Shown: positions 1,683 to 50,317 of the stretch, piece after piece
Numbering within the stretch: the first letter of the stretch is position 1
Layout of the letters: every line of letters starts with the position of its first letter
Assembly: GCA_036005845.1 (NCBI GenBank)
Contig: DASYQD010000018.1
Location: 13,333 to 77,332 of the forward strand
Direction: 5' to 3'
DNA: 64,000 nt
From: Thermoanaerobaculia bacterium
Lineage (GTDB): Bacteria > Acidobacteriota > Thermoanaerobaculia > Multivoradales > JAIOJS01
Program-made: the position numbers and the translations under genes
The notes under the pieces: generated by a model
The model's database searches: none
What the model saw: the letters and a program-made list of their open reading frames with translations, nothing else
What the model was told of the DNA's origin: nothing

Positions 1683-1882
1683 GAGCTCACCTGGCGCGTC
1701 TTGCGCAGGAACCAGACCTCGTAGACGACGAGGCCCGCGGCGGCGCCGAAGGCGCCGAGCGATAGCGCCAGCCAGCCGCCGCCGCCGACGGCCTGGCGCT
1801 GGTCCCAGGCCCAGACGCCCAGCCAGAGCGCGAGCAGCACGGCGGCGCTGATGAAGATCACGTGGAATGCCTTGAGCGACAC
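1676..1882 (-). CDS. small 2-TM membrane protein inside the oxidase operon (function unknown)
   Basis: 68 aa, two hydrophobic helices. Lies between the coxIV-like gene and coxB. Confidence 0.4.
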   Translation of the reverse strand: MSLKAFHVIFISAAVLLALWLGVWAWDQRQAVGGGGWLALSLGAFGAAAGLVVYEVWFLRKTRQVSSW

Positions 1883-1892
1883 CGGTTCCGGC

Positions 1893-2234
1893 TCAGTGGA
1901 TGGGATTGATCTCGTTGAGCTCGGTGATGGTCGGCCCGAGCAGCACGCCGAAGAAGAAGAACACCGTCGCCAGCATGAGGATGAGGATGAGCTTGCGCTC
2001 CGAGATCAGGTGCATGAAGTAGCAGGCCACCAGCGACCCCTTCACCAGGGCGATGGCGAGGGCGACGAGAATGGCCGGCACCGTCGGCAGGTGCAGGTAC
2101 TTGAGCCCGACGGTCACCAGCGTCAGCACCATCAGGCTGCCGAACACCAGCATGTAGGTGCGGACGTGCTTCTTGAGGTCGGCGTGCAGGTGCGGGTCGC
2201 CCTGCTCGGCGGTGTCGATGTGCTGCATGGTCAC
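1893..2234 (-). CDS. ctaF: cytochrome c oxidase subunit IV (prokaryotic CtaF/CoxD family)
   Basis: 113 aa, 3 TM helices, immediately downstream of coxC. Paralogous to the product of 9786..10151. Confidence 0.65.
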   Translation of the reverse strand: MTMQHIDTAEQGDPHLHADLKKHVRTYMLVFGSLMVLTLVTVGLKYLHLPTVPAILVALAIALVKGSLVACYFMHLISERKLILILMLATVFFFFGVLLGPTITELNEINPIH

Positions 2235-2253
2235 CTCAGTGCGACATCTTCGT

Positions 2254-2877
2254 TCAGTGCGAGACCGGAGGCCCGAAGTTGAGCAGGTAGAGGACGGGGA
2301 AGAGGAAGATCCACACCAGGTCGACGAAGTGCCAGAACAGGCCGGCCACCTCCACCCGGTTGGCGAACTGCTGCGGGTCGGTCTGCATCATCTTGGCGCC
2401 GGGGAAGCCGAAGTAGAAGTTGACGCACATCCCGGCCAGCACGTGCAGCGCGTGCAGGCCGGTGAAGGTGAAGTAGCAGGCCATGAAGGTGCTGTACGAG
2501 GGCGGGTGGTGGTGCTCGAACTTGGCGGCGTACTCGAAGCTCTTGACCACCATGAAGACGGCGCCCAGGCCCACCGTGGCGCCCATGTAAAGCCGCAGCT
2601 TCTTGAGGTTGCGCTCCATCGCCGCCACCCACGACATCACCATCGTCACCGACGAGGTGATGAGCACGATGGTGTTGAGGGTGGCGAGCGGGATCGACAG
2701 CAGCTCCGAGCCCGCGCCCCACGCCGGGTTGCCGGTGCGCAGCAGGATGTAGCCGGCGAAGAGCGAGCCGAACAGCATCACCTCGGAGGAGAGGAAGAGC
2801 CAGATGCCGAGCTTGACGTTGTTGAGGCCGGTGTCCGGCCTCGCGTCGACGGTGTACGGGATTGCTGCCGTGGACAT
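2254..2877 (-). CDS. coxC: cytochrome c oxidase subunit III
   Basis: 207 aa with a typical COX3 polytopic profile (WHFVDLVWIFLFPVLY C-terminus). Confidence 0.9.
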   Translation of the reverse strand: MSTAAIPYTVDARPDTGLNNVKLGIWLFLSSEVMLFGSLFAGYILLRTGNPAWGAGSELLSIPLATLNTIVLITSSVTMVMSWVAAMERNLKKLRLYMGATVGLGAVFMVVKSFEYAAKFEHHHPPSYSTFMACYFTFTGLHALHVLAGMCVNFYFGFPGAKMMQTDPQQFANRVEVAGLFWHFVDLVWIFLFPVLYLLNFGPPVSH

Positions 2878-2886
2878 CTCAGCTCC

Positions 2887-4713
2887 TCAAGCGTGTGCGG
2901 GATGCGGAGTGCCCGGGATCGGCGACACCGTCTCCGGCCCCGGCTCGCTCTGCGGGAAGAAGTCGCCCGGATGGTCGGGCACGCTGTACTCGTAGGGGCC
3001 GCGGTAAGCGACCGGCTGCACCTCGAAGTTGCCGTGCGGCGGCGGCGACGGGGCGGACCACTCGATCGTCGTGGCGTCCCACGCGTTGGCGGGCGCCAGG
3101 GCGCCGTGGCGCTTGCTCCAGAAGAAGTTGATGATGAAGGGAATCTGCGACAGCCCCAGGCCCCAGGCCGAGAACGAGATCACCTTGTGCAGCCACAGCA
3201 CGTGCGCGGTGTGGGTGTAGCTGGCGCCGCCGTCGTAGAGCCGCCGCTGCATGCCGGCGAGGCCCTGGATGAACATCGGCATGAAGACGCCGTTGATGAA
3301 AACAAGACTGGGCCAGAAGTGCAGCTGGCCGAGCCTGGTGCTCATGTAGCGGCCGGTGGCCTTCGGATACCAGTAGTAGATGCCGGCGAAGAGCGCGAAC
3401 AGCGTCCCCGGCGCCACCACGTAATGGAAGTGGGCGATGACGTAGTAGGTGTCGTGGAAGTGGATGTCGGGGCTGGCGAGGCCGAGCGGCAGGCCGGTCA
3501 AGCCGCCGATGCCGAACATCGGCAGGAAGGCGAGCGCGAAGAGCATCGGCGGCGTGAAGCGGATCGAGCCGCCCCACAGCGACAGGATGAGGCAGGTGAG
3601 GATGATCACCGAGGGGATCGAGATGATCATCGTCGTGGTCTGGAAGAAGGTCGACATCACCGTGCCCATGCCGGTCATGAACATGTGGTGCGCCCAGACG
3701 ACGAACGACAGCGCGCCTATGGCGAGCACCGAGAAGACCAGCGGCCGGTAGCCCCACAGCGGCTTGCGCGTGTTGTTGGCGATCACCTCGGCGACGATGC
3801 CCATCGCCGGCAGGATCAGCACGTAGACCTCGGGGTGGGCGAGGAACCAGAAGAGGTGCTGCCAGAGCAGCGGCGAGCCGCCGCCGGAGACCTTGAGCAC
3901 CTGCCCGGAGACCACCAGGCCCTGCGGCAGGAAGAAGCTCGTCTTGGCGACGCGGTCCATGAGCTGCATGATGCCGGCCGCCTGCAGGGCCGGGAAGGCG
4001 AGCAGCAGCAGGAACGAGGTGACGAACTGCGCCCAGACGAAGAAGGGCAGCCGCCAGAAGGTGAGCCCCGGCGCGCGCAGCTGGATGATGGTGGTGATGA
4101 AGTTGACCGCGCCGAGCAGCGACGAGGTGATCAGGAAGAGCATGCCGAGGATCCACAGCGTCTGCCCGGTGGGGAGGATGTCCGAGAGCGGCGGGTAGGA
4201 GGTCCAGCCGCCCTGCGCCGAGCCGCCGGGGACGAAGAAGCTGCCGAGCATCACCACGCCGCCCCAGAAGTAGGCGTGGTACGAGAACATGTTGAGCCGC
4301 GGGAAGGCCATGTCGGGGGCGCCGATCTGCAAAGGCACGACGAAGTTGCCGAAGCCGCCGACGGCGAGCGGCACGACGCCCAGGAACACCATGATGGTGC
4401 CGTGCATGGCGCCGAGCTGGTTGTAGAACTCGGGCAGCATCGAGCCGCCGGGCATGCGGGTGTCGCCGAGGATCTTGCCGAGCAGCGGGATCGCCTTGCC
4501 CGGGAAGGCGAGGTTCCAGCGCATCAGCATCATCAGCGAGAAGCCGAAGAGCAGGAACAGCAGGCCGGTGAAGGCGTACTGGATGCCGATCATCTTGTGA
4601 TCGGTGGAGAAGACGTAGTGGCGCCAGAAACCGAGCTGGTGGTGCTCGAGATGCGCGTCGCCATGCGCGTGCGCCGCGGTCTCCGGGTGGGCGTGCGTCG
4701 AAACGTCGGTCAT
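2887..4713 (-). CDS. coxA: cytochrome c oxidase subunit I (haem-copper oxidase catalytic subunit)
   Basis: 608 aa with COX1 signatures (WFFGHPEVYVLILP, HHMF, conserved His ligands). Confidence 0.95.
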   Translation of the reverse strand: MTDVSTHAHPETAAHAHGDAHLEHHQLGFWRHYVFSTDHKMIGIQYAFTGLLFLLFGFSLMMLMRWNLAFPGKAIPLLGKILGDTRMPGGSMLPEFYNQLGAMHGTIMVFLGVVPLAVGGFGNFVVPLQIGAPDMAFPRLNMFSYHAYFWGGVVMLGSFFVPGGSAQGGWTSYPPLSDILPTGQTLWILGMLFLITSSLLGAVNFITTIIQLRAPGLTFWRLPFFVWAQFVTSFLLLLAFPALQAAGIMQLMDRVAKTSFFLPQGLVVSGQVLKVSGGGSPLLWQHLFWFLAHPEVYVLILPAMGIVAEVIANNTRKPLWGYRPLVFSVLAIGALSFVVWAHHMFMTGMGTVMSTFFQTTTMIISIPSVIILTCLILSLWGGSIRFTPPMLFALAFLPMFGIGGLTGLPLGLASPDIHFHDTYYVIAHFHYVVAPGTLFALFAGIYYWYPKATGRYMSTRLGQLHFWPSLVFINGVFMPMFIQGLAGMQRRLYDGGASYTHTAHVLWLHKVISFSAWGLGLSQIPFIINFFWSKRHGALAPANAWDATTIEWSAPSPPPHGNFEVQPVAYRGPYEYSVPDHPGDFFPQSEPGPETVSPIPGTPHPAHA

Positions 4714-17402: not shown

Positions 17403-21995
<4,593 letters not shown>

Positions 21996-21999
<4 letters not shown>

Positions 22000-22646
22000 C
22001 GGTGGCACACCGAGCAGCTCGTGCGGCTGACGATCTTGTATTCCTTCATCAGCTCTGCGCGCCGCGCCGCGGAGATCAAAGCCGGGTCCCAGTTGGGGTT
22101 GAAGACTTCCTCGCGCGGCCGCACGTACTTCGCCGGGTCGCGATGGCAGCCGACGCACCACTCCATCTTCAGGCTCGACGCCTTCCAGGTCAGCGGCATG
22201 CGGCCGATGTCGCCGTGACAGGTGGTGCAGCCGATGCCCTTGGCGACGTGGATGCTGTGATTGAAGTAGACGAAGTCGGGCAGGTCATAGACGCGCCGCC
22301 AGTGCAGGGGAGTGCCGTCGCGGAAGCTCGCCCGCACCGGCTCGAGGATGGGCGAGTCGGCGAACAGCACCGAGTGGCAGCCCATGCAAGTGGCCGTCGG
22401 CGGGATGCCGGCGAAGGCGCTCTTCTCGACCGAGGTGTGGCAGTAGCGGCAGTCGAAGCCTTCCTCGCCGACGTGATGGTCGTGGCTGAACGGCACCGGC
22501 TGCTCGATCACCTGCCGCTCGCGCGTCACCGCCGGCGAGCGGTCGATCGCCATCGCCACCCACCCCGCGAACGCGATGAAGAAGATCAGCCCGAAGATGC
22601 TGACCCGCGAGATCGTGTTCGTGCTGGGGTGGAAGATCTGCGCCAT
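21996..22646 (-). CDS. actA: alternative complex III subunit ActA (pentahaem cytochrome c, membrane anchored)
   Basis: Five CXXCH motifs (CRYCH, CMGCH, CTTCH, CVGCH, CSVCH) after one N-terminal TM helix. Start ATG at 22646 (the track ORF is 36 aa longer). Confidence 0.9.
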
Positions 22647-22733
22647 CGCTCTCCCTGACTGCTGCCCAATCTGCGATGCGCCCCGCGAAACGCGGCGCCC
22701 AACATACCAGCACTCACGGCGGCACGTCCCGCC

Positions 22734-22756
22734 CCTTGTGCGCGGCCGGCACAAGG
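22734..22756. promoter_or_regulatory. perfect palindrome CCTTGTGC-N7-GCACAAGG in the divergent actA/ctaB intergenic region
   Basis: Lies 88-110 nt upstream of actA and ~106 nt upstream of ctaB. TGTGC/GCACA half-sites resemble CRP/FNR-family operators. Confidence 0.35.
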
Positions 22757-22861: not shown

Positions 22862-23752
22862 ATGCGCGAGAGCACGCTCCAGGCGACGGCGGGAGTGCGC
22901 CTGCGCGATTTTCTCGGCCTCGCCAAGACGGGCATCACCGCGATGGTGGCGCTCTCGGCGGCGGCGGGGATGCTGCTCGCGGCCGACGACGGGCCGACCT
23001 CGCCGGCGCTGTGGTTCCACACCTTGCTCGGCACGGCACTGGTGGCTGCGGCGGCATCGGCACTCAACCAGGTCGTCGAGCGCGACGTCGACGGCTTGAT
23101 GCGCCGCACAGCGCAGCGGCCGCTGCCGGCGGGGCGGATGCAGGCCGATGCCGCGGTGGCGTTCGCGGCGCTCCTCGGCGGCGGCGGGCTGCTCGAGCTG
23201 GCGCTGGGCGCCAACCTGCTGGCGGCGTCGCTGGCGGCCGCGACGCTGGTCGGTTACGTCGCCGTCTACACACCGCTCAAGCGCGTCAGCTCGCTGTCGA
23301 CCGTCATCGGCGCGATCCCCGGCGCGGTGCCGCCGATGGTCGGCTGGGCAGCGGTGACCGGCACGCTCGGGCCCGGCGCGTGGGCGCTCTTCGCACTACT
23401 CTTCTTCTGGCAGATGCCGCACTTCCTCGCCATCGCCTGGCTCTACCGCTCCGACTACGCTCGCGGCGGCTTCCCGATGCTGTCAGTGGACGACGAAGGC
23501 GGCCTGCGCACGTCGCGGCAAGCGCTTCTGTACTGCGCGGCGCTCGTGCCGGTGAGCCTACTGCCTGCGGCACTCGGGCTCGCAGGCGCCGTCTACTTCG
23601 CCGGCGCGCTCATTGCTGGCGGCTGGTTCCTCGCCGCGAGCGCGGCGTTCGCGCTCGACCGCAGCGCGCCGGCCGCGAAGCGGCTGATGCTGGTCTCGGT
23701 GTTCTACCTGCCGGCGGTGCTTGCCGCGCTGGCGGCCGACCGGCTGATCTGA
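22862..23752 (+). CDS. ctaB: protohaem IX farnesyltransferase (haem O synthase)
   Basis: 296 aa polytopic UbiA-family protein with NQ..ERD.D..M.RT..RPLP motif. Confidence 0.9.
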   Translation: MRESTLQATAGVRLRDFLGLAKTGITAMVALSAAAGMLLAADDGPTSPALWFHTLLGTALVAAAASALNQVVERDVDGLMRRTAQRPLPAGRMQADAAVAFAALLGGGGLLELALGANLLAASLAAATLVGYVAVYTPLKRVSSLSTVIGAIPGAVPPMVGWAAVTGTLGPGAWALFALLFFWQMPHFLAIAWLYRSDYARGGFPMLSVDDEGGLRTSRQALLYCAALVPVSLLPAALGLAGAVYFAGALIAGGWFLAASAAFALDRSAPAAKRLMLVSVFYLPAVLAALAADRLI

Positions 23753-23916
23753 GCTGATCGCGGCTGCGCGGTGCTGGGTCGTAATGCCCTCACGAGAGCG
23801 TGTTCCCAGAGTGAGGCCCGCCGTGCTGCTCCGTGACGCCGGTCCGGCCCGCTACCAGTGACGGGGCTTTGCCCAGCAAATCGCTCCTGCCCAAATAATC
23901 GGCAGGCTGCCAAAGG

Positions 23917-24141
23917 TCACTTAGCGTCGGGAAGGATGTCCGCCGCGCGGAGCGCTAGCCGGCGCAGCCATGCGCTCAACTTCAAGCCGTCACGCGCGGC
24001 AGCAGCCTCAAGAGCGCGCTTCTGCTCGGCCTGGATGCGCATGCGCACGACGTCATCCTTGAGCGCCTTGCCGGCCGGCGGGCCGGCCCTCCTCTTCGCC
24101 TGGGTCACGGCGTTAGATTGTGGGCGGATGTAGCTACACAT
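23917..24141 (-). CDS. ribbon-helix-helix protein, MobC/CopG-like (relaxosome accessory or antitoxin-type)
   Basis: ...RRAGPPAGKALKDDVVRMRIQAEQKRALEAAAARDGLKLSAWLRRLAL. Start is uncertain: track ORF starts at 24234, and the ATG at 24141 gives 74 aa. A TGTAGCTACA palindrome abuts that ATG. Confidence 0.5.
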   Translation of the reverse strand: MCSYIRPQSNAVTQAKRRAGPPAGKALKDDVVRMRIQAEQKRALEAAAARDGLKLSAWLRRLALRAADILPDAK

Positions 24142-24604
24142 CAAGTCAGCGTCCGCCAATGGTAGTCGGGCACCTTGAGGTACTTCCGGAGCGCTCGACG
24201 CATGACCTCGCTCTCGCTGAGCAGAGTTGGCCATCCAGCGCGATCCCGGCCTGTTCGCCTATTACTATCCGCCAAGCGGGGCGGTCTTCGTCAGGTGCGT
24301 CCACTGCGCCAAGTGCGGCGAGGAGTCCGCCTTTGGGTTCACCACAGGCGCAGATGACCGTGAGCGATTGGCGCGGATCGCCCTGCCGCAGAGCGCCCTA
24401 AGCCAGGCTGTCACTTCAAATGACCAGCGCCGCCTTGTGGCGCGGCGCGAAGCCTCAGCGGCCGCTGCCGCTACCACCGCCCGCATGGCTTGCCCTGCGC
24501 CGCCTTCCTCGCCGTGGGCATCTTGTGGCGCCCTGGAGACGAGTGGCACGCAGCGGCGTGCATCTGCTATGTCGCGTCGGCTGGTGCCGCGCCAGAAACG
24601 GGCG

Positions 24605-24844
24605 CTATTGCTTAGTCGTCGCCGTCAGCTTCTTTGAAGGGAAGAAGTGCCAGAAGACCGGATAAAGAGTCCCGGTCAAGAAAGACTCCACTAGGGCGAT
24701 TGGCCATGAACGGCAAAAAAAGATGAGCGCCACGGCGAGGCCCAAGTACACAAATCCTGCCAAAAGAACGAGCCACACCTTGGCACCGATGTCGGCAATA
24801 ATCTTGTAGGCCTTAGCCTGCTCTTCGGTGATGCGCTCGGGCAT
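24605..24844 (-). CDS. small 2-TM membrane protein (island gene, unknown function)
   Basis: 79-86 aa depending on start (TTG 24865 or ATG 24844). Two hydrophobic helices. Low GC. Last gene of a three-gene minus-strand operon. Confidence 0.4.
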   Translation of the reverse strand: MPERITEEQAKAYKIIADIGAKVWLVLLAGFVYLGLAVALIFFCRSWPIALVESFLTGTLYPVFWHFFPSKKLTATTKQ

Positions 24845-24857
24845 GGCTGTCGGCAGC

Positions 24858-25220
24858 CTAGGCAACGACGCTGTAGACTTCGATTACCTGCAACTTGCGC
24901 GGATCGAATTGGCACTCCTCGCCTTCAGCCTCGCACACATGACAAACAACGGTTGCGGGCACGCGCTCGCCCGCCGGCACGTACTCAGCAATGTTCTTGT
25001 CGCGAGGGCAGAGATAGCCGTGCCGCTTGGCGAATAGGCCCTCTCTCACGGCGAGTTCGCATAACATATGAGCTACACGGTAAGGGACACGAAAGAAGCT
25101 GCGGATATTCTCGACGTAGATGTTTTGTGGATCGGTGTTGCGCATTAGCTCGGCACGGCGTGCGAACGCATCCCCAATCCAGCTCCTATCCATTGCGCCG
25201 ACGAATCTCTCGAACCACAT
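24858..25220 (-). CDS. Cys-rich hypothetical protein (possible zinc ribbon, CHVCEAEGEEC)
   Basis: 120 aa. Overlaps the upstream gene by 35 nt. No recognisable family. Confidence 0.4.
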   Translation of the reverse strand: MWFERFVGAMDRSWIGDAFARRAELMRNTDPQNIYVENIRSFFRVPYRVAHMLCELAVREGLFAKRHGYLCPRDKNIAEYVPAGERVPATVVCHVCEAEGEECQFDPRKLQVIEVYSVVA

Positions 25221-26043
25221 AGGCCGCCCCTTGGTCTAAATGGGAAAACGTCCTGAAGCTAACGATGCCCTTGGTCGGGTCTACTGTGAAGTGATCCAGG
25301 CCGATGCTGTCCCCCATCCACTTGAAAGTGGTGGCAAGCAGCGGCTTGTCGCGCAGATCGTCGTATAGAGATGGATCGTCTCTCTTCACCAAGTAGTTTC
25401 CGTCCATCACCTGACGCGTCGTCGCGCGCGCCTTCTTAAACTGCACAGCCGGGGCGTCGATCAAACCTTCGTCCCAAAGCGCCTTCACTCCCTCGTTCAA
25501 GTCCTCGGGATGTACATCGGAAAGGCCGAGAGAATCGAACACAAGGATCTCCACCATCGCTTCGTCTAGATCCTTGATGCTTCGTATGACTCGACCCGGC
25601 TCGTACTGAGCTGCAAGATTCTTCTCCATAATCGTAAAGCGCAGTTCTAAACTGTTCCGACCGCACGTGACGTGCACGGGCCAGAGATAATCGACGGCCT
25701 TCTTCTCTAGTGGATCGGCAAGGTAGACAACGTAGGGAAGGTCCAGCAGATAGAACCAGCTACGGCTCGTCCTAGCGGGGTCGCTTGCCAGCAACCGACC
25801 ATCGTCAAGCAACCCCTCAGGCAGATCGCGTACTGTGACGTCCGAACACCTGTGGAGGTGCACATGGTGCTTTGTCGTGAGATGGTGCGTGATGATAAAC
25901 GCGTCGACCTCGCCCCCGTCGCGGGAGCCCAGGATTGCTTCGATGACCTGTGCCTTGGTGCCGGTCGGTAGATCGAAGTACTGCCGCAGCTGTTCAAGGG
26001 GATACAGATCTAGTAAGCGAACGGCAAGTGGATTCTGAGCCAC
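25186..26043 (-). CDS. hypothetical protein (285 aa, no recognisable domain), first gene of island operon
   Basis: The track ORF extends to 26448 through high-GC sequence. A GTG at 26043 is preceded by a strong Shine-Dalgarno (GGAGGGGGC-GTG). Low GC. Confidence 0.5.
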   Translation of the reverse strand: MAQNPLAVRLLDLYPLEQLRQYFDLPTGTKAQVIEAILGSRDGGEVDAFIITHHLTTKHHVHLHRCSDVTVRDLPEGLLDDGRLLASDPARTSRSWFYLLDLPYVVYLADPLEKKAVDYLWPVHVTCGRNSLELRFTIMEKNLAAQYEPGRVIRSIKDLDEAMVEILVFDSLGLSDVHPEDLNEGVKALWDEGLIDAPAVQFKKARATTRQVMDGNYLVKRDDPSLYDDLRDKPLLATTFKWMGDSIGLDHFTVDPTKGIVSFRTFSHLDQGAAYVVREIRRRNG

Positions 26044-26233
26044 GCCCCCTCCAGACCTGTTGAACCAGTGGACTACGGCAGACCATACCGCAGATCGTGA
26101 CGAGAGGAGCCAGGGCGTCACGGGCGGCCGTGGATGCGCCGGCCGCCAGTCTAGCGCACTCCTCGGCCAGACCCTGGTCTGCGACCGACCTCCGGACAGG
26201 CGGCACATCCCGCAAGCCACGAATCGCCCCGGG

Positions 26234-26262
26234 TTGACTTGTCGAAATGTCGCCAATAAAAT
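26234..26262 (+). promoter_or_regulatory. sigma70-like promoter (TTGACT-17nt-TAAAAT) driving a near-leaderless transcript for the 26269 ORF
   Basis: Consensus-like -35 and -10 boxes with 17-nt spacer. ATG at 26269 is 7 nt after the -10. Direct TGTCG repeats and a TGTCGC/GCGACA inverted repeat overlap the -10 and start codon. Confidence 0.5.
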
Positions 26263-26268
26263 AGGCCC

Positions 26269-26910
26269 ATGAGCGACAACGACCACCACCCCGACGGGAT
26301 AGCGAAGCGCGACAGCCTCACTCCGCTCAACGCCTGCGTCCACGCCGCGCTGGAGCACGGCGTGGGGCTGGCTCAGGCGTTCTTTGAAGGGCGCCAGCTT
26401 GACCCGTGGCTGTTCGCTCACATTGTGCGCTACGGGGTGCTGGAGCACCTACCGGACGCCATCGTCAACGTGGACGATTACGGCGTCACACGCAACGCCA
26501 TGTGCGGCGTGGAGATTCACGCTGACGGTTGCTCCATTCGGATCTGGAAGAAGCCCAGGGCCGAGGATGAGTATCTCCAGCCTCCAGGAGAGTCGGAGGT
26601 CCGCCAATCCTTCTACTGGCAGCAGATCCCTCTGCCTTTCGCAGTCGAGCAGCAGCTACCTCAGCCGGACAACTTGGCGTATGTCTGGGAAGCCTTGCCC
26701 TCCGGGACAATGAATCTGTTCCTCGTCAAGCCGAGCGGCATCGAAGGAATCTGGAAGCCGGGTCTATTCGAGTGGGCCGTTCCGGTGCCGCATCCGGCGG
26801 AGCTGGTCACCGTCGGTACCGACTTCCTCGAGGGCGACGAGGACGAAGATCTGGATATCGACCTGCCAAACGCGGGTTCTGGTGGCGGCGAGCCCAACGG
26901 CGGAGCCTAA
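26269..26910 (+). CDS. hypothetical protein with acidic C-terminal tail (213 aa)
   Basis: ORF begins immediately after the promoter. No recognisable family. Co-directional and adjacent to the XRE/ImmA-like gene. Confidence 0.5.
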   Translation: MSDNDHHPDGIAKRDSLTPLNACVHAALEHGVGLAQAFFEGRQLDPWLFAHIVRYGVLEHLPDAIVNVDDYGVTRNAMCGVEIHADGCSIRIWKKPRAEDEYLQPPGESEVRQSFYWQQIPLPFAVEQQLPQPDNLAYVWEALPSGTMNLFLVKPSGIEGIWKPGLFEWAVPVPHPAELVTVGTDFLEGDEDEDLDIDLPNAGSGGGEPNGGA

Positions 26911-26917
26911 GGCAGTC

Positions 26918-28024
26918 ATGGCGGCAGTCAACGGAGAACGCGTCAAGCAGGCGCGCGAGATACGAGCGCTTACGCAGGGTGAGCTTGCAGAGCGCATCGG
27001 AGTCTCGCAGCCAACCATTTCGCTCATCGAACAAGGAGCGCAGCAGCCATCCGAAGGGGTGCTGCAAGCGCTGGTGCTGGCGACGGGCTTTCCTGTGGGC
27101 TTCTTTCAGAAAGGGAAGGGGCCGGACTTTCCGTCGGGGTCTATGCTCTATCGCAAGTCGAAGAAACTACCGAGCACGCCAGCCAGTCAGTTGCGGCAGT
27201 CGGCGCGGCTTGCTCTGGAGCTGGTCCAAGCCCTCGGCACTCGATTCAAGCCGATCCCCGTGCGGATACCGCTGGTAGGCAGCGGTGATCCGATAGAGGC
27301 CGCGCATGTCGGCCGGTCGGTCCTGGGAGCATCGCCAGACGGGCCGATGACCGGAGTCATTCGGCGCCTGGAGCGCGCCGGGGTGCTTGTCGTATTCCTC
27401 CCCTCGGCGCCCGACGGATTCGACGGCTTCTCCGCTTGGTCCGACGAGGGCGACGGACACGAGAGGCGCCCAATCATTTGCCTTAAGCACGGCGTGCCGG
27501 GCGACCGTCTTAGGCTCACGGCGGCGGAGGAGCTGGGCCACCTGATGATGCATCAGGACTTCCTAGGCGGTTTGAAGGAGCTGGAGCAGGAAGCCGATGA
27601 GTTTGCAGGAGAGTTTCTATTTCCGCAGAGCGAGATGAAGGAGCAACTCAGGCTGCCGATAACACTCGCGCACTTGGGCGAGCTCAAAGCGCGTTGGGGC
27701 GTCTCCATCGCTGCCATCGCACACCTTGCCGAGCAGCGGGGATTGATCAGCGACCGCCAAAAGCGGTACGTGCGGGCAAAGCTGCATGATCGCGGGTGGC
27801 TGCATACGGAGCCGATCCATATCCCGGTAGAGGCCCCCAAGCTTTGGCGCCAGATGGCGGAGGGCATCTTCGGAGCGCCGGTTGACCATAAGCGCTTGGC
27901 GCGCGAGTTTGAGGTCTCCTCTGGCTTCGTTCAACAGTTGATCGAGGTCAACCGGCCGCTAGACGCGAGACCCATTGCTCCTAGCTCTCAGGTTCTTCTG
28001 CGCTTCGACCGCCGTCGCGCCTGA
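26918..28024 (+). CDS. XRE-family HTH fused to ImmA/IrrE-like (COG2856, M78-type) metallopeptidase domain
   Basis: N-terminal HTH (QAREIRALTQGELAERIGVSQPTISLIEQG) and central AAEELGHLMMH. The latter is an ImmA-like motif with the first His replaced by Glu. 368 aa from ATG 26918. Confidence 0.75.
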   Translation: MAAVNGERVKQAREIRALTQGELAERIGVSQPTISLIEQGAQQPSEGVLQALVLATGFPVGFFQKGKGPDFPSGSMLYRKSKKLPSTPASQLRQSARLALELVQALGTRFKPIPVRIPLVGSGDPIEAAHVGRSVLGASPDGPMTGVIRRLERAGVLVVFLPSAPDGFDGFSAWSDEGDGHERRPIICLKHGVPGDRLRLTAAEELGHLMMHQDFLGGLKELEQEADEFAGEFLFPQSEMKEQLRLPITLAHLGELKARWGVSIAAIAHLAEQRGLISDRQKRYVRAKLHDRGWLHTEPIHIPVEAPKLWRQMAEGIFGAPVDHKRLAREFEVSSGFVQQLIEVNRPLDARPIAPSSQVLLRFDRRRA

Positions 28025-28087
28025 ATCGCAGGCTTGACACGTAGCTCGTTGGTAACCACACCGTGGATACTAATTGGAGACGTGGCG

Positions 28088-28519
28088 ATGGACCCAAGAG
28101 AACGGCGCAGACTGGTGATAACGGTAACGGTCCGAATCACTCGGAAGGGTAACGCATGGACTGTTCCTTCTCAGTGAGCGTCCCGAACGTTGGACCACCT
28201 CGGGGAAGTGGCGGTCACCCACCGTTGGCACTCTCGGATGGTGACTGGTAACGATGTCAAGTTTCGCGGGCCGCGGTGGAGAAGCTGCGAGCAGAGCGGG
28301 TGGCGAGATGCGCGTGTGGGGGAGCACCGTGCTAATCAAAACGCTGGCCGAGTACGACCGGTCGACGAGTACCGGCTCGCCGGCTACCCGCTCGTGCTGA
28401 GCACTGGCAAGAAGCTGTTCTCCGACAGGTTCGCGTCACCAGACTTCACCCTGACCGAGTCGCGCGCCGTGCGATCCGGAGGCCTGGTCAACACCTACCG
28501 TGGCGCCGGCTCAGGCTGA
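28088..28519 (+). pseudogene. frameshifted/degraded RibD C-terminal domain (dihydrofolate reductase-family) gene
   Basis: C-terminal frame gives VDEYRLAGYPLVLSTGKKLF...LTESRAVRSGGLVNTY (RibD_C hallmark). Upstream part is in another frame (..VLIKTLAEYD..). A short ORF from ATG ~28088 stops after 29 codons. A TTGACA lies at ~28035. Confidence 0.45.
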
Positions 28520-28672
28520 TCAACCACACCGACAGCTCGTCTCGGCGTTCTGCTTGCCGGCGGTGGTCGCCGCGCTGGCGGGTGACGGGCTGATTGAGCT
28601 GAGCGCGGCGGCGCGGATACGGGACCGCCTGGCGGGGCAGCACGTGATTCACGTGCTAATCTGGGAGCCGCC

Positions 28673-28906
28673 ATGAAGACGAACGTCACGCTCAAGCTCG
28701 ATGCGGATCTCCTCCGCGAGGCGCGCGTGGTGGCAGCCGAAGAGGGGCGATCGATGAGCGCTCTTCTCACCGATCAACTCGAAGGCATCGTGCGCGAGCG
28801 GAAGGCCTTCGTTAAGGCGCGGCGGCGGGCACTTGCCCGTCTCCGAGAGGGTCTCGACCTCCAGTGGACACCGCCCGCATCGCGGGACGAGCTCCATGAG
28901 CGATAG
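28673..28906 (+). CDS. vapB: VapB-type RHH/AbrB-like antitoxin
   Basis: 77 aa (MKTNVTLKLDADLLREARVVAAEEGRSMSALL). Overlaps vapC by 11 nt. Confidence 0.7.
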   Translation: MKTNVTLKLDADLLREARVVAAEEGRSMSALLTDQLEGIVRERKAFVKARRRALARLREGLDLQWTPPASRDELHER

Positions 28907-29348
28907 ACACTTCGTCGACACCAACATCCTGATGTACGCCCACGACGCTGCCACGGGCGAGAAGCATCAAATGGCCCGGGCGCTGGTGGAGCAGTTGTGG
29001 GAGACGAGGTCGGGTGTCGTCAGCACCCAGGTCCTTCAGGAGCTGGCGGTCAACTTGCGGAGGAAGGCCAAGAAGCCACTCGATGCAAGGACGACTCGTG
29101 ACGTCGTGTCCGACTACCTTGCGTGGCACGTTGTCGTGAATGGCGGGGAGTCGGTTCTCGAAGCGCTCGATCTCGAAGCGCGGCATCGCATCTCTTTCTG
29201 GGATGCCCTCCTGATACAGGCCGCGAACGCTTCTGGCGCTGAGATCCTCTACTCCGAGGATCTGTCGGACGGCCAACGTTACGGATCGGTACGAGTCATC
29301 AATCCGTTTCGAGTGAAGGCCCGCGCCGCTCCGCCATCGCCCGGCTAG
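28896..29348 (+). CDS. vapC: PIN-domain toxin VapC
   Basis: MSDRHFVDTNILMYA...FWDALLIQAA, 150 aa from ATG 28896 (the track ORF starts 21 codons earlier). Confidence 0.85.
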   Translation: MSDRHFVDTNILMYAHDAATGEKHQMARALVEQLWETRSGVVSTQVLQELAVNLRRKAKKPLDARTTRDVVSDYLAWHVVVNGGESVLEALDLEARHRISFWDALLIQAANASGAEILYSEDLSDGQRYGSVRVINPFRVKARAAPPSPG

Positions 29349-29360
29349 AATCCGCGGCCG

Positions 29361-30011
29361 ATGGCTGCCATGGCTCCTCCCCCCGTGCGCTGGCTTCCGG
29401 CCGCGCTCGGCGCGCTGCTGCTGATGATGACGATCGGCCTCGGCCTCGTCTGGTGGTGGGGGAGGCAGCCGCCGCCGTCGCTGCCGGTGATGAGCGAGCT
29501 GCCGGCGTTCACGCTCATAGACAAGAGCGGCGCGACGGTCACGCCCGCCACGCTCGCCGGGCGGCCGTGGATCGCCGACCTCGTCTTCACGCGTTGCCAG
29601 CTCTCCTGTCCGCTGATGACCGAGCGCATGGCGTCGCTCGGCCAGCGCCTCGCGCCCGGCGTGCGCCGCGTCAGCATCTCGGTCGATCCGGCGCACGACA
29701 CGCCGGCGGTGCTCGCCGAGTACGCGAAGGTGCACAAGGCGGAGGCGCCCGATTGGCTCTTCCTCACCGGTGACGAAGCCGAAATGCATCGCCTCGCGGT
29801 CGAAGGGTTCAAGCTCGGCGTCGCTCCCGCCGACGCCAGCGATCCGCGCGCCGCGCAGGAGCCGGTGACGCACAGCACGCGCTTCGTGCTCGTCGACGGC
29901 CAGGGCCGCGTGCGGGGGTGGTACGACGCCTTCGACGAGGGCTCGCTGGGCAAGTTGCTGCGCGACGCGGCGTGGCTCGCCGCCAGCAACGACGGGGCCG
30001 CCGGCGGGTGA
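29361..30011 (+). CDS. SCO1/SenC copper chaperone (second copy)
   Basis: N-terminal TM, CQLSCP motif, downstream His (THSTRFVLVD). Confidence 0.85.
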   Translation: MAAMAPPPVRWLPAALGALLLMMTIGLGLVWWWGRQPPPSLPVMSELPAFTLIDKSGATVTPATLAGRPWIADLVFTRCQLSCPLMTERMASLGQRLAPGVRRVSISVDPAHDTPAVLAEYAKVHKAEAPDWLFLTGDEAEMHRLAVEGFKLGVAPADASDPRAAQEPVTHSTRFVLVDGQGRVRGWYDAFDEGSLGKLLRDAAWLAASNDGAAGG

Positions 30012-30472: not shown

Positions 30473-30940
30473 GTGGCATGGCGCGATCGCCCGCTGGGCC
30501 TGATCCTCATCGTCGCCTACAAGGCGATCTGGGGCACGCTCGAGATCGCGGCCGGCATCTCCGTCCACTGGGTGCCGTCGCTGCTCGCGGCGAGGCTGGC
30601 CGACGACCCGCAAGACCAGCTCGCCAACTGGTTGAAGGCTCACGTGCCGCTCGAGCCGGAGCACCTGCGTTTGGCGATCTTCGGTCTGCTGGCGCTCGGC
30701 ATCCTCAAATGGGCGCTGGCGATCGGGATCTGGCGGCGGTCGTGGCTGGTGCGCGACCTGGCGCTGCTGGTGATGGGCGTCGCCGGCGTCTTCGCCATCG
30801 TCGGGTTGGCGGCGCATGCGACGATCTTCCGGCTGGTGGTCGTCGTCACCGACCTGCTCATCGTCGTCTACATCTGGCGCTTCCTGCCGCGCCACCTGCC
30901 GCCGCGGCCGAGGCGCGCCGGGACGCCGGTGCTACCCTGA
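30473..30940 (+). CDS. DUF2127 membrane protein
   Basis: 155 aa (YKAIWGTLEIAAG pattern), 4 TM helices. Confidence 0.55.
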   Translation: MAWRDRPLGLILIVAYKAIWGTLEIAAGISVHWVPSLLAARLADDPQDQLANWLKAHVPLEPEHLRLAIFGLLALGILKWALAIGIWRRSWLVRDLALLVMGVAGVFAIVGLAAHATIFRLVVVVTDLLIVVYIWRFLPRHLPPRPRRAGTPVLP

Positions 30941-46549: not shown

Positions 46550-46713
46550 GTGGCTGTTCGCAGGTTGACCAGGTGTACGTCATACGAGGGCTAGGAGCAT
46601 TCCCGCGCCGTGCCGCGCGCCCGCACAGTTCAGATCCGGCCGTCATCGCTACGACGCGAGCGACCTAGAACTGGAGCCTTTGAGACGCCAGCACTCAGAA
46701 CACCGCAGCGCTC

Positions 46714-47508
46714 CTATTGTGTCTCGGAGGCCGGCTGGTCAACACAAGCATACGGCTGGCACCGATCCCACAGATCCTCGAAATAGGTCTCGAAGAGCGC
46801 GTAGATAGAGGGTTGACCCTGACTCATCTTTCTGCACTCGATCACAGGTGCGTGCTCCTCGTTTTGCTTGCGCACGATGTAAGGTACGATAAAAAGTACT
46901 TCGTCCAAGAAGAAAAGCCGCCAGAGATACGGCTCCCGATGGCAGCGAACCTCGATGGCAATTCCTTCCATCACCAATGCCTGAATGTTAGTCAAAGTGT
47001 AGGCGACAGCCGCCATCCAACTCTCGTAGCTACTGCCGAGGTCCTTCGCCCGCTGCCGAGTGAATTGATCAGAGTTCTTTCCGGCGCACAGCACCCGAAT
47101 CGTTTCATCTGATCGTTTCTTCAGGCGAGCCGCATCGAATAGTAGCGCCTTATCGTGCCCTCCCAAGATGTTCCGCCCAAGTTGGATGAGGATTCGCGAG
47201 GTCTTTGCTCTCGAAAAGTTGTCTCGAATTGCGTTCTCGGCATGCCGAAAGTTCGGATAGAACCGCACAAAGCCGAAAGCACCTCCAGCTCGCCGCGCCC
47301 AGTAGGCAGACAGGCGATCGAGGAGTGCATCGCGGAGCTGTCGCCGCAGCGCGACTACGACGATCATGGCCAAAGTTATGCCGGTTGCGGCGGTTAGCCA
47401 AGGATCTCCAAGAGGCCTGCCAAACGCCTTCATTAGCGCGTAGACTACCGCCGCGAGCAAGGCGACTACCGCCGCAGAAAGGAGATCACTCAGAAGTTCT
47501 TTCTTCAT
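46714..47508 (-). CDS. 2-TM membrane protein with ~200-aa cytoplasmic domain of unknown family
   Basis: ATG at 47508 (MKKELLSDLLSAAVVALLAAVVYALM...) is preceded by AAGGG. 264 aa. Last gene of the minus-strand island operon. Confidence 0.5.
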   Translation of the reverse strand: MKKELLSDLLSAAVVALLAAVVYALMKAFGRPLGDPWLTAATGITLAMIVVVALRRQLRDALLDRLSAYWARRAGGAFGFVRFYPNFRHAENAIRDNFSRAKTSRILIQLGRNILGGHDKALLFDAARLKKRSDETIRVLCAGKNSDQFTRQRAKDLGSSYESWMAAVAYTLTNIQALVMEGIAIEVRCHREPYLWRLFFLDEVLFIVPYIVRKQNEEHAPVIECRKMSQGQPSIYALFETYFEDLWDRCQPYACVDQPASETQ

Positions 47509-48973
47509 TGCTGGCCCTTTGTTTGCGGAGCCAAAGAATCGCCGGTCGCGCATCGTACTGGCCCGTTCCAATCAGCTCTAAGTAATGCGACAGTGGCACA
47601 TGCTCCAGGCTTGGCCCTAGATGCGCGATAAAGTCATTAAGCGTGAGGCCATTTTCGTCGAGCATCTGCTGCAATAGCTGCCGCCCGGTCGCCACATCGG
47701 CAGTCTCAGACGCGGACGGTCGCGCTGGCTCTCGGACCTTGTAGTCTTCGTGGGACGCCTCGCCGAACTCTGCGACCGCGTGCATGCCGAGCGTCCGCGT
47801 CTGAATTTCTGCCAATCCGACATCACCGCCCCTCGCGGTCGAGGCAACCCAGTGCAACGACTGGTAACCATTACTCTTCGGGCGAGCGATGTAGTCCGAA
47901 AATCCCCGTGGACTGTTCCAGCGGGTCAAAAGCGCGCTTAGAACGTCAACAAACTTGTAACAGGTGCTTGGATTCCTGTCATCGATAACCGCTCGGTAGC
48001 CAATGCTGTCCCAGAGACCAGATACCGGGACTTCGTACCGTAGTGATTTCTGGTAGGCGCTGAAGACCGACTTCGTCCTACGCTGCAAGACGACACGAGT
48101 CGGTGACAACTCTGCAGCCGCGAGCTCAAGTGCCTGTTCCACCTCGCAGAGAAAGCGACTTCCGGGCAGGGCCTCGTCAAGGTCTTGGCGCGTCTCGGCA
48201 AATATCTGTGGATCGACTTCCGCAAATGCCAAATCGCGCAAGTCTCTCGCTCTGTCCCCGAAGCGGTGCTCCCCGACCAGAAGGGGCAGGACTCGGAGAG
48301 CGAAGCTCGCCAACTCAGCCCGCAAGGCTGTCGGCACTTCGAGAGCTGATACTTCCGAGACGGAGGCTACCACTGTGCTGAAGAAGAGAAGAATATAGAC
48401 GGCCTCCCTCTCTGCTTGGCTTGGATCGAGCGAGCTACGAAGCTGCTGCCGAAGAAAGCCCGCAGCATCGATGGCGGCGCGGGATACGGGCAGGTGTGGC
48501 GGCGGCGATTCGGCGGAAACCGATCGCGCCGCGCGCAATGCCCGGCGAAGGCTTTCCTGGAATGGTCCGTAAAAGAACGCCGCTATCCGGAGTCCAGCGC
48601 GCGCGCGCGCGGATAGCTCTCGAGTCGTCGATCCTCTCGCTTTGTGTGCGAGCTCGTGTCCGGCCAGACATAAAATTTCAAGAAGCTCCAAATCCAGCGC
48701 GAAGAAGCCGGGCTGAAAGCTGCTGGTGTCCGCGCCGAAGTCCATAAAAAGACGCCAGACCGCCCTAGACGAATAGAGAGGGAGTTTCAGGCCAGCCAAT
48801 TCCCTCAGCTGGATAGGGACCTGTCGAATTTCCTCGAGAAAGCCACCCTGGGGATAAAGCTCCCGGCAGAGCTCAGACTGCTCGAGCTCTTCCAAGTGCG
48901 CCAGTTCGCGGGCGAGCCAGGGATGATCGTTCCGCGCCACAGACAACCAATTGCGGTCTAAGGAGACAATCAT
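47486..48973 (-). CDS. fusion protein: N-terminal HEXXH metallopeptidase-like domain + C-terminal RelA/SpoT (RSH) nucleotidyl/pyrophosphotransferase domain
   Basis: ILCLAGHELAHKARG (HEXXH) at residues ~105-115. C-terminal DSIGYRAV.., GYQSLHWV, EIQTRTLGMHAVAEFGEASHEDYK match RSH synthetase motifs. 495 aa. Confidence 0.7.
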   Translation of the reverse strand: MIVSLDRNWLSVARNDHPWLARELAHLEELEQSELCRELYPQGGFLEEIRQVPIQLRELAGLKLPLYSSRAVWRLFMDFGADTSSFQPGFFALDLELLEILCLAGHELAHKARGSTTRELSARARAGLRIAAFFYGPFQESLRRALRAARSVSAESPPPHLPVSRAAIDAAGFLRQQLRSSLDPSQAEREAVYILLFFSTVVASVSEVSALEVPTALRAELASFALRVLPLLVGEHRFGDRARDLRDLAFAEVDPQIFAETRQDLDEALPGSRFLCEVEQALELAAAELSPTRVVLQRRTKSVFSAYQKSLRYEVPVSGLWDSIGYRAVIDDRNPSTCYKFVDVLSALLTRWNSPRGFSDYIARPKSNGYQSLHWVASTARGGDVGLAEIQTRTLGMHAVAEFGEASHEDYKVREPARPSASETADVATGRQLLQQMLDENGLTLNDFIAHLGPSLEHVPLSHYLELIGTGQYDARPAILWLRKQRASNEERTSE

Positions 48974-49117
48974 GCCGTCTCTATCTTGGGTCCAATCAGG
49001 TTATTGCTTGTTTGTTGTTTGCTCGAAGTCGGCTCTCGGTCAGGATGCTACAAACCTCTACGCGTGAGATGCGCGCCGATAGTCCTCAGCAAAGAACGCG
49101 GCCGGACTCAGCGCCGC

Positions 49118-49483
49118 TCAGGACATACTAGACAGTTGAGCCATGAGCGAAACGACCAATCCAGCGACCTCCTCGGCCTCGTGCCCACGCCCGCTAAAAA
49201 GATGGAACCGCTTAAAGTATTCTAGCACGTCGGATTTCTGCAGGCGCCGAGCAGAAAGAGCGTATGGAAGGTAGTTGACTGATACGCCTCTCAAAAGGCG
49301 CGTATAGCTCCTGGTGGTCAGCCGACGAGCGGCATACTGAACGAGAAAGGCCTCATGCTCGCTGAGAGCATGCTCGAGGTCGGCGATCGTTGCTACGTTA
49401 AACAAGAGAAAGTGGTCGGTGTGGCCTGCGGCAACACCAGATAGTACAAGCCTATCCAGGAGGACTGAAGCAGCCTCGGCCAT
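49118..49483 (-). CDS. hypothetical protein (121 aa)
   Basis: ORF lies between the two RSH genes and overlaps the upstream gene by 90 nt. Coding status uncertain. Confidence 0.3.
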   Translation of the reverse strand: MAEAASVLLDRLVLSGVAAGHTDHFLLFNVATIADLEHALSEHEAFLVQYAARRLTTRSYTRLLRGVSVNYLPYALSARRLQKSDVLEYFKRFHLFSGRGHEAEEVAGLVVSLMAQLSSMS

Positions 49484-50226
49484 CGCACGTCTATTCTAGC
49501 GACCAGCGGACTCGCCCGGATGAAGCGGTCGAGAGAGTCCGCATCAATTGTGACCTCGCCAGGACTGACCTGAATGTCACTATCCAAGGCGGCCCGATAG
49601 CCGTGCAATGTATCGCGAAGACGCGAAAACTCTTGATCAGCAAGCTCAAGAAGACCGGCAATCCTTGAGAACGCTCGCTGTGCCTGTCGCGGCACAGCAT
49701 TCCTGGTCTTGTATCCGAGATCATGGTGGATCTCGGCCCAGGAGTGTTGGAGAATGGATCTGATTTGTATCTCTGCCTTAAGGTCTCGAAACCGCCTATA
49801 CTCTGGAAGATCTATCCTGGATTCTCCCAGCGACACAACGTAGTGCACGGAGAGATACCCAAACCGGTCTGGATCCAAGATCGCTCTCTTGTCGACCGAA
49901 TTGTCAGTGTCCACTTCGAACTCTTCCTGTACAAGCTCTGCGATTCTGTCCACGTCGTCCGCAAAGTAGGTGATCAGGCGAATTCCGGCCAGGTCAGTGA
50001 TCTCGTCGAGCGATTGATACGCGGACGGATGTCTTTGTAGTTTTAGCGAGAGCGACTCGGCTGTCTTCGGACGTCCGGTTATTGAGTGAATTGCTGAAGC
50101 AGTGGGCTCTATGAGCCTTTGAAGGAGACTTGTCATCTCCGTAGCGAAGCGGGCGTAGATTTGGAACCTGTGCTGATACTCGCCAAGGATCGCCTCAGGG
50201 CGGCGGGGCGCCAACGACAGATTCAT
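49393..50226 (-). CDS. RelA/SpoT-domain small alarmone synthetase-like protein
   Basis: ITDLAGIRLITYF, GYLSVHYVV, LKAEIQIRSILQHSWAEIHHDLGYK are canonical (p)ppGpp-synthetase-fold motifs. 277 aa, no HD hydrolase domain. Confidence 0.8.
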   Translation of the reverse strand: MNLSLAPRRPEAILGEYQHRFQIYARFATEMTSLLQRLIEPTASAIHSITGRPKTAESLSLKLQRHPSAYQSLDEITDLAGIRLITYFADDVDRIAELVQEEFEVDTDNSVDKRAILDPDRFGYLSVHYVVSLGESRIDLPEYRRFRDLKAEIQIRSILQHSWAEIHHDLGYKTRNAVPRQAQRAFSRIAGLLELADQEFSRLRDTLHGYRAALDSDIQVSPGEVTIDADSLDRFIRASPLVARIDVRWPRLLQSSWIGLYYLVLPQATPTTFSCLT

Positions 50227-50277
50227 GACCTCAGCAAGGGATGGTCGGTGAGGCGTCGGCGGCCCGGCTGTAATCTG

Positions 50278-50317
50278 GGCCGCCGGCGGGGCTGCGCGGC
50301 CGCCGGCAGGGCTGCGC
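50278..50317. repeat. 20-bp tandem direct repeat x2 (GGCCGCCGGC[G/A]GGGCTGCGC) upstream of the RSH gene
   Basis: Two adjacent units differing at one position, 50-90 nt upstream of the start at 50226. Confidence 0.55.

Follow-up and report, generated by a model that had tools for sequence, protein, structure and literature searches.

The stretch of DNA analysed here, referred to as the window, comprises 64,000 nucleotides of contig DASYQD010000018.1 (assembly GCA_036005845.1, positions 13,333 to 77,332) from an uncultured soil bacterium of the Thermoanaerobaculia (Acidobacteriota). It carries an intact ctaB gene (22862-23752, forward strand) encoding a heme O synthase of the UbiA family (Pfam UbiA 1.3e-53). 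In the window, ctaB is separated from sco (29361-30011, forward strand; SCO1-SenC Pfam 3.1e-25) by about 5.6 kb of low-GC DNA, the islet, which contains toxin-antitoxin (TA) genes and a second, degenerate copy of the ctaB terminus. The original prediction, made from the letters of the window, had taken the DNA between the two copies for what was probably a decayed integrative or mobilisable element that had inserted into the 3' end of ctaB and reconstituted the gene. We show that the ctaB-sco junction is a hotspot with turnover of its cargo and not the site of a discrete element, and we propose how the duplicated ctaB terminus may have arisen.

The 3' end of ctaB occurs twice as a direct repeat. 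The proximal copy (DR1, 23689-23771, forward strand, 83 nt) is the functional end of the gene with its leader; it spans the final 61 coding nucleotides, the stop codon and another ~19 nt. The distal copy (DR2, 28535-28616, forward strand, 82 nt) is an orphaned, decayed ctaB terminus with leader, located between a 4.76-kb cargo block and a vapBC pair. Local alignment gives 71 identical columns out of 83 (85.5%) and a single 1-nt gap, instead of the two 1-nt indels originally reported. In the ctaB frame DR2 reads LVSAFCLPAVVAALAGDGLIE, and because a 1-nt deletion removes the stop, the frame runs on to a TGA (28674-28676) overlapping the vapB ATG (28673), as had been stated. Background was obtained by local alignment of the ctaB terminus to every 300-nt tile of the window on both strands. 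DR2 reached a Smith-Waterman score of 51.5, the runner-up among the 842 tiles scored 18, and the background scores had a mean of 10.6 and a standard deviation (SD) of 2.6, which places DR2 about 15 SD above every other place in the window. The region is 70% GC and rich in chance matches of 14-20 nt, but a score of 51.5 against a window-wide maximum of 18, in a match collinear with the ctaB frame and stop, excludes chance similarity of GC-rich, low-complexity DNA, to which we assign a probability close to nil. A second copy of the locus' own ctaB terminus was present in none of the 147 other ctaB loci, and no relative was found that carries both copies without low-GC DNA between them. Tandem accretion would lead one to expect a third copy where the insertion ends on the right, but none was detected (best score 11.5). 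The longest identical run between DR1 and DR2 is 13 nt, so that neither RecA nor an integrase has a good substrate and the structure is effectively locked; the islet is fixed today.

The extent of the inserted DNA was determined by comparison with close relatives, defined by a CtaB protein at least 81% identical. CtaB orthologues at 81-93% amino acid identity are encoded by the loci L088, L170-180, L001 and L002. Among the retrieved ctaB loci the ancestral order is ctaB followed directly by sco, or directly by DUF420. Direct succession of ctaB and sco is found in 11 related contigs of five lineages (L001, L002, L173-175, L176 and L177-180; Thermoanaerobaculia where named), the spacer of these empty sites measuring 30 nt in L001, 25 nt in L173-175 and 9 nt in L177-180. 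The ancestral ctaB-sco-DUF420 neighbourhood is thus split by the insertion, which bears out the predicted interruption of a ctaB-sco-ctaM neighbourhood. Homology of the window to the empty-site genomes ends at 23750-23752 and restarts at 29354-29357 (at 29354 with L001, at 29357 with L173), the right junction and sco together occupying 29354-30011. The inserted DNA therefore measures about 5.6 kb (~23753-29353) and includes vapBC. An insertion behind ctaB had been correctly recognized, but the 4.85 kb bracketed by the repeats (given as ~4.9 kb) is not its unit, since foreign DNA continues to ~29353. DR2 has foreign DNA on both sides, the last 740 nt to its right, and divides the tract into the 4.76-kb block and vapBC.

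Base composition agrees with these limits. A fall in GC content had been noticed and is real, although the value of ~50% was overstated: the interior of the islet has a GC content of 0.55-0.66 (mean 0.615) between flanks of 0.71-0.73. The GC content at third codon positions (GC3) is 0.67-0.80 in all nine islet genes against 0.91-0.94 in the flanking ActB, ActA, ctaB, sco (0.92), DUF420, DUF2127 and xdhC genes. To the right of DR2, vapB (0.74) and vapC (0.76) are as foreign in composition as the rest of the islet, and they are equally missing from the empty sites. At least two compositional classes are present within the islet, which implies a mosaic origin. Neither the ends of the 4.76-kb block, nor the vapBC flanks, nor the ends of the whole insertion carry terminal inverted repeats, and no inverted or short direct repeats at the same ends rose above shuffled controls, the best being GAGTGAGGCCCGC... 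at 23808 versus 29310 (z ~2.4). This weak direct similarity near the insertion ends (23808-23833, GAGTGAGGCCCGCCGTGCTGCTCCG; 29310-29333, GAGTGAAGGCCCGCGCCGCTCCG) scored 10.5, compared to a mean of 7.6, an SD of 1.2 and a maximum of 13 in shuffles, and is not significant. The window contains no transfer RNA (tRNA) or transfer-messenger RNA (tmRNA) gene, and Rfam searches of 23000-30000 returned a chance microRNA match only. Exact-protein look-ups with CtaB, VapC and RmrT retrieved only the same population (JGI 3300036853 Ga0376046_0000075, which carries the identical sequence, and a Logan contig from SRR11742809, which carries part of it) and no strain variant that lacks the 4.76-kb block.

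The leftmost islet gene encodes a small ribbon-helix-helix (RHH) protein on the reverse strand (23917-24141; 74 amino acids as called, with a possible 105-amino-acid extension to 24234). It had been described as MobC-like, but it shows only a 37-residue RHH match and stays below the cut-offs of the mobilisation families (NikA-like 26.3 bits, cut-off 27; MbpA 16.9 bits, cut-off 90; MbpA and MobA ~17 bits, cut-offs 80-90). We class the protein as a DNA-binding regulator or antitoxin-like protein; as a sign of mobilisation it carries no weight. It is followed by a three-gene module on the reverse strand (24605-26043) encoding a 285-amino-acid protein (25186-26043), a cysteine-rich 120-amino-acid protein (24858-25220) and a 79-amino-acid protein with two transmembrane segments (24605-24844). 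These genes have the lowest GC content of the islet (GC3 0.67-0.70). They had been regarded as orphan hypotheticals; instead, homologues occur in the same order and with the same overlap in three unrelated contigs (L083 9905-11342, L084 10001-11460, L085 3702-5178). The gene of the 120-amino-acid protein overlaps the 285-amino-acid gene, its product is 62-68% identical between contexts, and the two-transmembrane protein varies from 71 to 89 amino acids. In L084 the module adjoins TIR, HicB and type IIG restriction-modification/SNF2-PLD genes. The 285-amino-acid family comprises 341 representative clusters and has no Pfam model; its AlphaFold2 model is confident (predicted local distance difference test, pLDDT, 82), with weak fold matches to TBP/CENP-N-like sheets. 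We regard the module as a candidate for a new defence or abortive-infection system.

On the forward strand follows a predicted RosmerTA toxin-antitoxin/defence pair (26269-28024). The first gene (26269-26910) encodes an RmrT-like toxin of 213 amino acids (PADLOC RmrT 1.6e-7, a weak match), preceded by a promoter-like site at 26234-26262, apart from which the scan for promoters and terminators gave nothing beyond expectation. This RmrT variant is seldom met: 5.8 billion clustered sequences yielded only four clusters of it, and each of its few homologues (P0011, P0012; L168, L169) is followed by a gene with HTH_3 and Peptidase_M78 domains, so that the pair is kept. The second gene (26918-28024), 7 nt downstream, had been called an XRE/ImmA-like regulator. 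It encodes a full-length RmrA antitoxin with an N-terminal XRE helix-turn-helix (HTH) domain and an ImmA/IrrE zinc peptidase domain of family M78 (PADLOC RmrA 2.3e-58 over residues 16-354; Pfam HTH_3 3.5e-11, Peptidase_M78 6.2e-16), which corrects the annotation to RosmerTA antitoxin. A frameshifted RibD_C pseudogene had been predicted as well, and a heavily decayed forward-strand remnant is indeed present at ~28190-28519; its frameshifts were recognized by frame analysis, and the repaired translation matches PF01872 with E 6e-4, below the curated cut-off. Beyond DR2, the forward-strand vapBC genes (28673-29348) encode VapB (28673-28906; DUF6364 1.2e-6, an RHH-like antitoxin) and the PIN-domain protein VapC (28896-29348; PIN 1.6e-10). 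They overlap by 11 nt and are predicted to form a standard pair of PIN toxin and small antitoxin.

As originally stated, the islet has no integrase; searches with Pfam, NCBIfam, PADLOC and PHROGs found no integrase, transposase or relaxase in any islet ORF (open reading frame). Its non-coding gaps do not exceed 463 nt and thus leave no room for a decayed integrase. No match to plasmids or phages was obtained with the islet DNA, and of its proteins the two examined, the 285-amino-acid family and RmrA, have no relatives in viral contigs. The gene content, formerly taken as typical of mobile DNA, is TA/defence cargo, which presumably serves in defence.

The closest ctaB relatives of the window have neither this islet nor an empty site. 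In L088 (CtaB 93% identical) an AbiEi_2-like gene (weak match) and an NTP_transf_8 nucleotidyltransferase gene lie directly behind ctaB (1290-3174). In L170-172 (CtaB 91-92% identical) ctaB is followed by genes for a PIN-like protein, a response regulator, a 626-amino-acid double GHKL ATPase, a type II methyltransferase (PADLOC 2.5e-46) and a MerR/mad1-like HTH protein (MADS-like), and then by an AbiEii-like gene (L170 7832-13284, L171 3902-8345). L170 and L171 vary further, the methyltransferase of L171 being truncated relative to that of L170. The occupied sites together thus carry RosmerTA, VapBC, an AbiE-like pair and a type II methyltransferase with GHKL ATPase, and no integrase, excisionase or relaxase was found in the visible parts of the L088 and L170-172 islands. 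The same core pair flanks empty tracts (L001, L002, L173-180) and differently filled ones (window, L088, L170-172), although in L088 and L170-172 the contig or the fetched flank ends before sco is reached. The islet itself was found attached to ctaB nowhere outside the window's own population. The site is therefore a hotspot with cargo turnover, for which ctaB serves as the conserved left flank and anchor; the picture of a discrete element that reconstituted ctaB is not supported.

Both extremities of the cargo are nevertheless related between lineages. A post-stop leader (GCTGATCGCGGCTGCGCGG..., 23753-23785, forward strand in the window) is common to DR1, DR2, L170-172 and L088. It has the form GCTGA-C-CG...GCGCG, is similar over ~20-35 nt and is present at every occupied site and in both window copies, whereas the empty sites of L001 and L173-175 have in its place a different spacer, common to both. 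Towards L170, the blastn homology of the window breaks off at 23773, practically where DR1 ends. At the opposite extremity, the terminal 118 nt of the RibD_C remnant, directly left of DR2 (28401-28517), match L170 12569-12685 (blastn 79.7%, E 9e-21) and L171 8639-8755, and a corresponding tblastn match lies in L172 (7950-8063). In L170 the remnant stands at the far side of the cargo and retains less of the RibD_C pseudogene. The right breakpoints in the remnant vary between the window and L170. Hence the window block and the L170-172 islands have both extremities in common, but not the cargo. L088, past the leader, has no significant homology to the DNA after DR1 or DR2, and in L170-172 no second ctaB copy occurs within 9 kb. 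The occupied loci group together as a clade in a tree of ctaB nucleotide sequences (157 of 200 bootstraps). The simplest reading is that an island was already present in the common ancestor of this clade and that its cargo has been replaced since. At the end of ctaB itself (23740-23760) we also observed a 7-mer on either side of the stop codon, GCTGATC-TGA-GCTGATC (GATC N6 GATC). The arrangement is present in all occupied sites and not in the empty sites L001, L002 and L173-175; it could be part of a recombination site or merely the start of the common leader.

DR2 shows the marks of age. Directly before the C-terminal residue, the window, L088 and L001 have the same 19 residues (LVSVFYLPAVLAALAADRL), and the last 60 coding nucleotides of DR1 differ from the L088 orthologue at three positions, all of them third codon positions. 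DR2, by comparison, differs from DR1 by nine substitutions distributed 3:3:3 over the codon positions, with five amino acid replacements and one frameshifting deletion. The lack of codon-position bias indicates that DR2 is old, non-functional and drifting without coding constraint. It is most closely related to the window's own DR1 and to the ctaB genes of the clade, not to a foreign ctaB, and DR2 is thus a displaced copy and not a slice of functional ctaB from a distant donor. The divergence unique to DR2 is ~0.13 per site uncorrected (~0.15 after Jukes-Cantor correction), of the same order as the per-lineage synonymous divergence (dS) of ~0.18 towards the sister lineage (window-L088 dS 0.37), which dates the event far back; the RibD_C remnant in common with L170-172, at 20% divergence, is in keeping with such an age.

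We propose that ~23753-29353 is an old, integrase-free mosaic TA/defence islet in a lineage-specific ctaB-sco hotspot and that the repeat is the scar of one building step, with recombination anchored on ctaB and independent of a recombinase as the most likely mechanism; to this reading we give about an even chance of being correct. vapBC and the short post-stop leader would already have stood behind ctaB, an order of events that we infer. The 4.76-kb block (RHH gene, three-gene module, RosmerTA and RibD_C remnant) would then have entered, anchored on homology of the ctaB 3' end and leader, either by a single crossover of a circularised fragment carrying a ctaB end or by homology-facilitated illegitimate recombination. 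The former ctaB terminus would have been pushed downstream, to decay as non-coding DR2, while the functional DR1 stayed joined to ctaB. Later, the cargo of the sister lineages may have been replaced between the same left anchor and variable right breakpoints. Both parts of this scenario have counterparts in the literature: TA islets and defence hotspots without mobile-element genes are described as spreading via recombination in flanking core genes (PMC13617665, PMC10250203), and anchor-mediated displacement is proposed to shift old 3' ends downstream in T6SS/Rhs (type VI secretion system/Rhs) orphan arrays (PMC5361080). Anchored recombination is favoured because no recombinase or remnant of one is visible in any of the four occupied lineages, because the repeats do not bound the foreign DNA and a third copy is missing, because the repeat includes a leader that naive sites lack, and because the right breakpoints at RibD_C vary between lineages, and because no ctaB-targeting element was seen among the 147 loci.

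Several points weigh against this reading, and some of them speak instead for a decayed site-specific element, as originally predicted. Such a relic of the cis-mobilisable element (CIME) type, possibly with accretion, would descend from a tyrosine-integrase island that used the ctaB 3' end and leader as att site, with DR1 as attL and DR2 as attR; its integrase and transfer genes would later have been deleted, or integration would have been provided in trans, and the sister junctions would reflect repeated use of the same att site. Tyrosine-integrase islands classically leave attL and attR as direct repeats overlapping a conserved gene at its 3' end, and the 83-nt repeat fits that picture. Four different cargoes, vapBC counted, begin a few nucleotides at most from one another, ~20-35 nt past the stop and with the leader in common, as an att site would give. 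The low GC3 of the cargo implies a first entry into the clade from outside, by another route, which ctaB-anchored recombination alone cannot explain. The L088 and L170-172 islands are visible in part only, and an integrase or a second ctaB copy could lie further downstream. As weak evidence in the same direction, every pairwise comparison shows the final 70 nt of ctaB to be more conserved than usual, as if the DNA were a recombination site. In an event of this age, moreover, genes would have had time to be lost, and good documentation exists both for CIMEs, which keep att sites and have lost integration and transfer genes, and for tandem accretion behind a target gene (PMC5704250). Anchored recombination has further difficulties of its own. 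No microhomology is visible at the left edge of DR2 (the sole common motif, GGCTGAT, lies 14 nt upstream), the intermediate order ctaB-leader-vapBC-sco occurs in none of ~180 loci, and support for the occupied clade is moderate (78%). We nevertheless consider a CIME-type origin doubtful. Neither the islet nor the visible parts of the three other occupied lineages hold an integrase, excisionase, relaxase or pseudogene remnant of one, vapBC lies outside the repeats without a third att copy, and L170-172 lack the second ctaB copy over the 9 kb covered. As the post-stop part of the repeat is not in naive sites, the 'attB' could not be the empty site of the relatives. No element targeting ctaB and no plasmid, phage or viral-contig relative speaks for such an ancestry. 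Nothing positive supports a CIME derivation: the att-like repeats and the lack of genes fit it by default, and no related functional integrative and conjugative element (ICE) or integrative and mobilisable element (IME) was found.

The remaining explanations are less probable still. The ctaB terminus and the ~30-nt leader might constitute a dedicated recombination site at which unrelated TA/defence cassettes enter and are exchanged, almost to the same nucleotide, through a recombinase whose gene lies elsewhere in the genome or on a helper element. We hold this to be improbable; if true, Thermoanaerobaculia would possess a cassette system of integron-like or cis-mobilised type, in which DR2 would be an inter-cassette site that was retained. 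A decidedly improbable course is that one homologous recombination brought in all 5.6 kb, with the ctaB fragment inside it, from a donor in which the islet was preassembled between ctaB and sco. Hotspot islets can move whole through flanking core genes (PMC10250203, PMC13617665) and the occupied loci belong to close relatives, but ctaB shows no signal of a recombination tract: in its divergence profile the last 70 nt are conserved in all pairs, and a tract from an L170-like donor was rejected for lack of a donor signal. Such a transfer would, moreover, shift the origin of the repeat to the donor without explaining it, and it is compatible with anchored assembly, not exclusive of it. Very improbable, finally, is a local duplication preceding the cargo, in which slippage or unequal crossing-over produced a tandem ctaB terminus and leader between which the cargo landed later by illegitimate events. 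The close relationship of DR2 to DR1 and to the ctaB genes of the clade, and the neutral decay expected of a redundant local copy, would suit such a duplication. Against it, no related genome has adjacent copies or any second copy, two independent rare events are needed at the same spot, and the coincidence of the right edge of the repeat with the leader/cargo boundary of the sister lineages is left unexplained.

The surroundings of the islet show further variation. Immediately upstream of ctaB and divergent from it lies an alternative complex III operon (18859-22754, reverse strand; also L081 1-6378), encoding a pentahaem ActA, an ActB of 1046-1100 amino acids, an NrfD-like ActC, ActD and a cytochrome cbb3-type subunit, so that the islet sits in the middle of a respiratory gene neighbourhood. 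L173 (11159-12730) carries an unrelated ORF of 523 amino acids in place of DUF2127 (window 30473-30940, between DUF420 and xdhC), and an extra CLIPPER/DUF7933 gene between actA and ctaB, which points to further small variable spots in the neighbourhood. At 46700-50300 a second low-GC islet (GC 0.55-0.60), also without integrase, is situated between DinB_2 and glyoxalase genes. It encodes two RelA_SpoT-domain proteins (47486-48973, 5.5e-18; 49393-50226, 1.8e-21), both matching the PADLOC candidate PDC-S33, together with a membrane protein of 285 amino acids and an ORF of 121 amino acids, and looks like a toxSAS-type TA/defence islet.

The ctaB-sco islet provides a clean example of small TA/defence islets that are built and renewed between core genes without visible mobile-element machinery, and the orphaned ctaB terminus is a datable scar of one assembly step. 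Searches of Thermoanaerobaculia metagenomes for defence cargo can take the ctaB-sco gap as their landmark. Of the by-products, the three-gene module (285, 120 and 79 amino acids) holds the most promise; other genomes have it embedded in defence genes.

No new type of mobile element comes to light here, and the parts of the islet have parallels in known systems. The RosmerTA pair resembles the published system (PMC10440598), in which the gene of an antitoxin with HTH and ImmA/IrrE zinc peptidase domains lies immediately 3' of a small, poorly conserved toxin gene; here, the putative toxin is a rare RmrT variant with a weak PADLOC match (1.6e-7). With CIMEs and the tandem accretion of ICEs and IMEs (PMC5704250) the islet shares direct repeats duplicating a gene 3' end, the absence of integration and transfer genes and an adjoining foreign module. 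It differs in that there is no integrase or relaxase remnant, that the two would-be modules come with just two att-like copies, that the leader within the repeat is missing from naive sites, and that no functional element targeting ctaB is known. Orphan arrays of T6SS, Rhs and contact-dependent inhibition (CDI) loci (PMC5361080) likewise have a constant upstream anchor, and in them an old 3' end with its module persists behind a new module, as the orphaned 3' fragment DR2 does here between the probably newer block and the vapBC genes that we take to be older. In the present case, however, the anchor is a housekeeping enzyme and not a polymorphic toxin, a single orphan terminus is present, the cargo consists of TA/defence genes instead of effector-immunity pairs, and the mechanism would apply by analogy. 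Closest are the integrase-free defence hotspots and TA islets, the core defence hotspots cDHS1/2 of Pseudomonas aeruginosa (PMC10250203) and the TA islets of Photorhabdus (PMC13617665). There as here, core genes surround a short, low-GC variable tract with TA or anti-phage modules and no mobile-element genes, relatives carry other cargo or none, and transfer is thought to run through recombination in the flanking genes. Unlike these hotspots, the islet belongs to uncultured Thermoanaerobaculia, has respiratory genes (ctaB, sco) on either side and no tRNA or tmRNA gene in its vicinity, and holds an internal duplicate of its left-flank terminus, a scar not reported as typical of the cDHS1/2 and Photorhabdus hotspots. 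The islet thus adds a case from a poorly studied phylum to two phenomena already known: TA/defence hotspots that lack an integrase and lie between core genes, and 3' ends orphaned by displacement.

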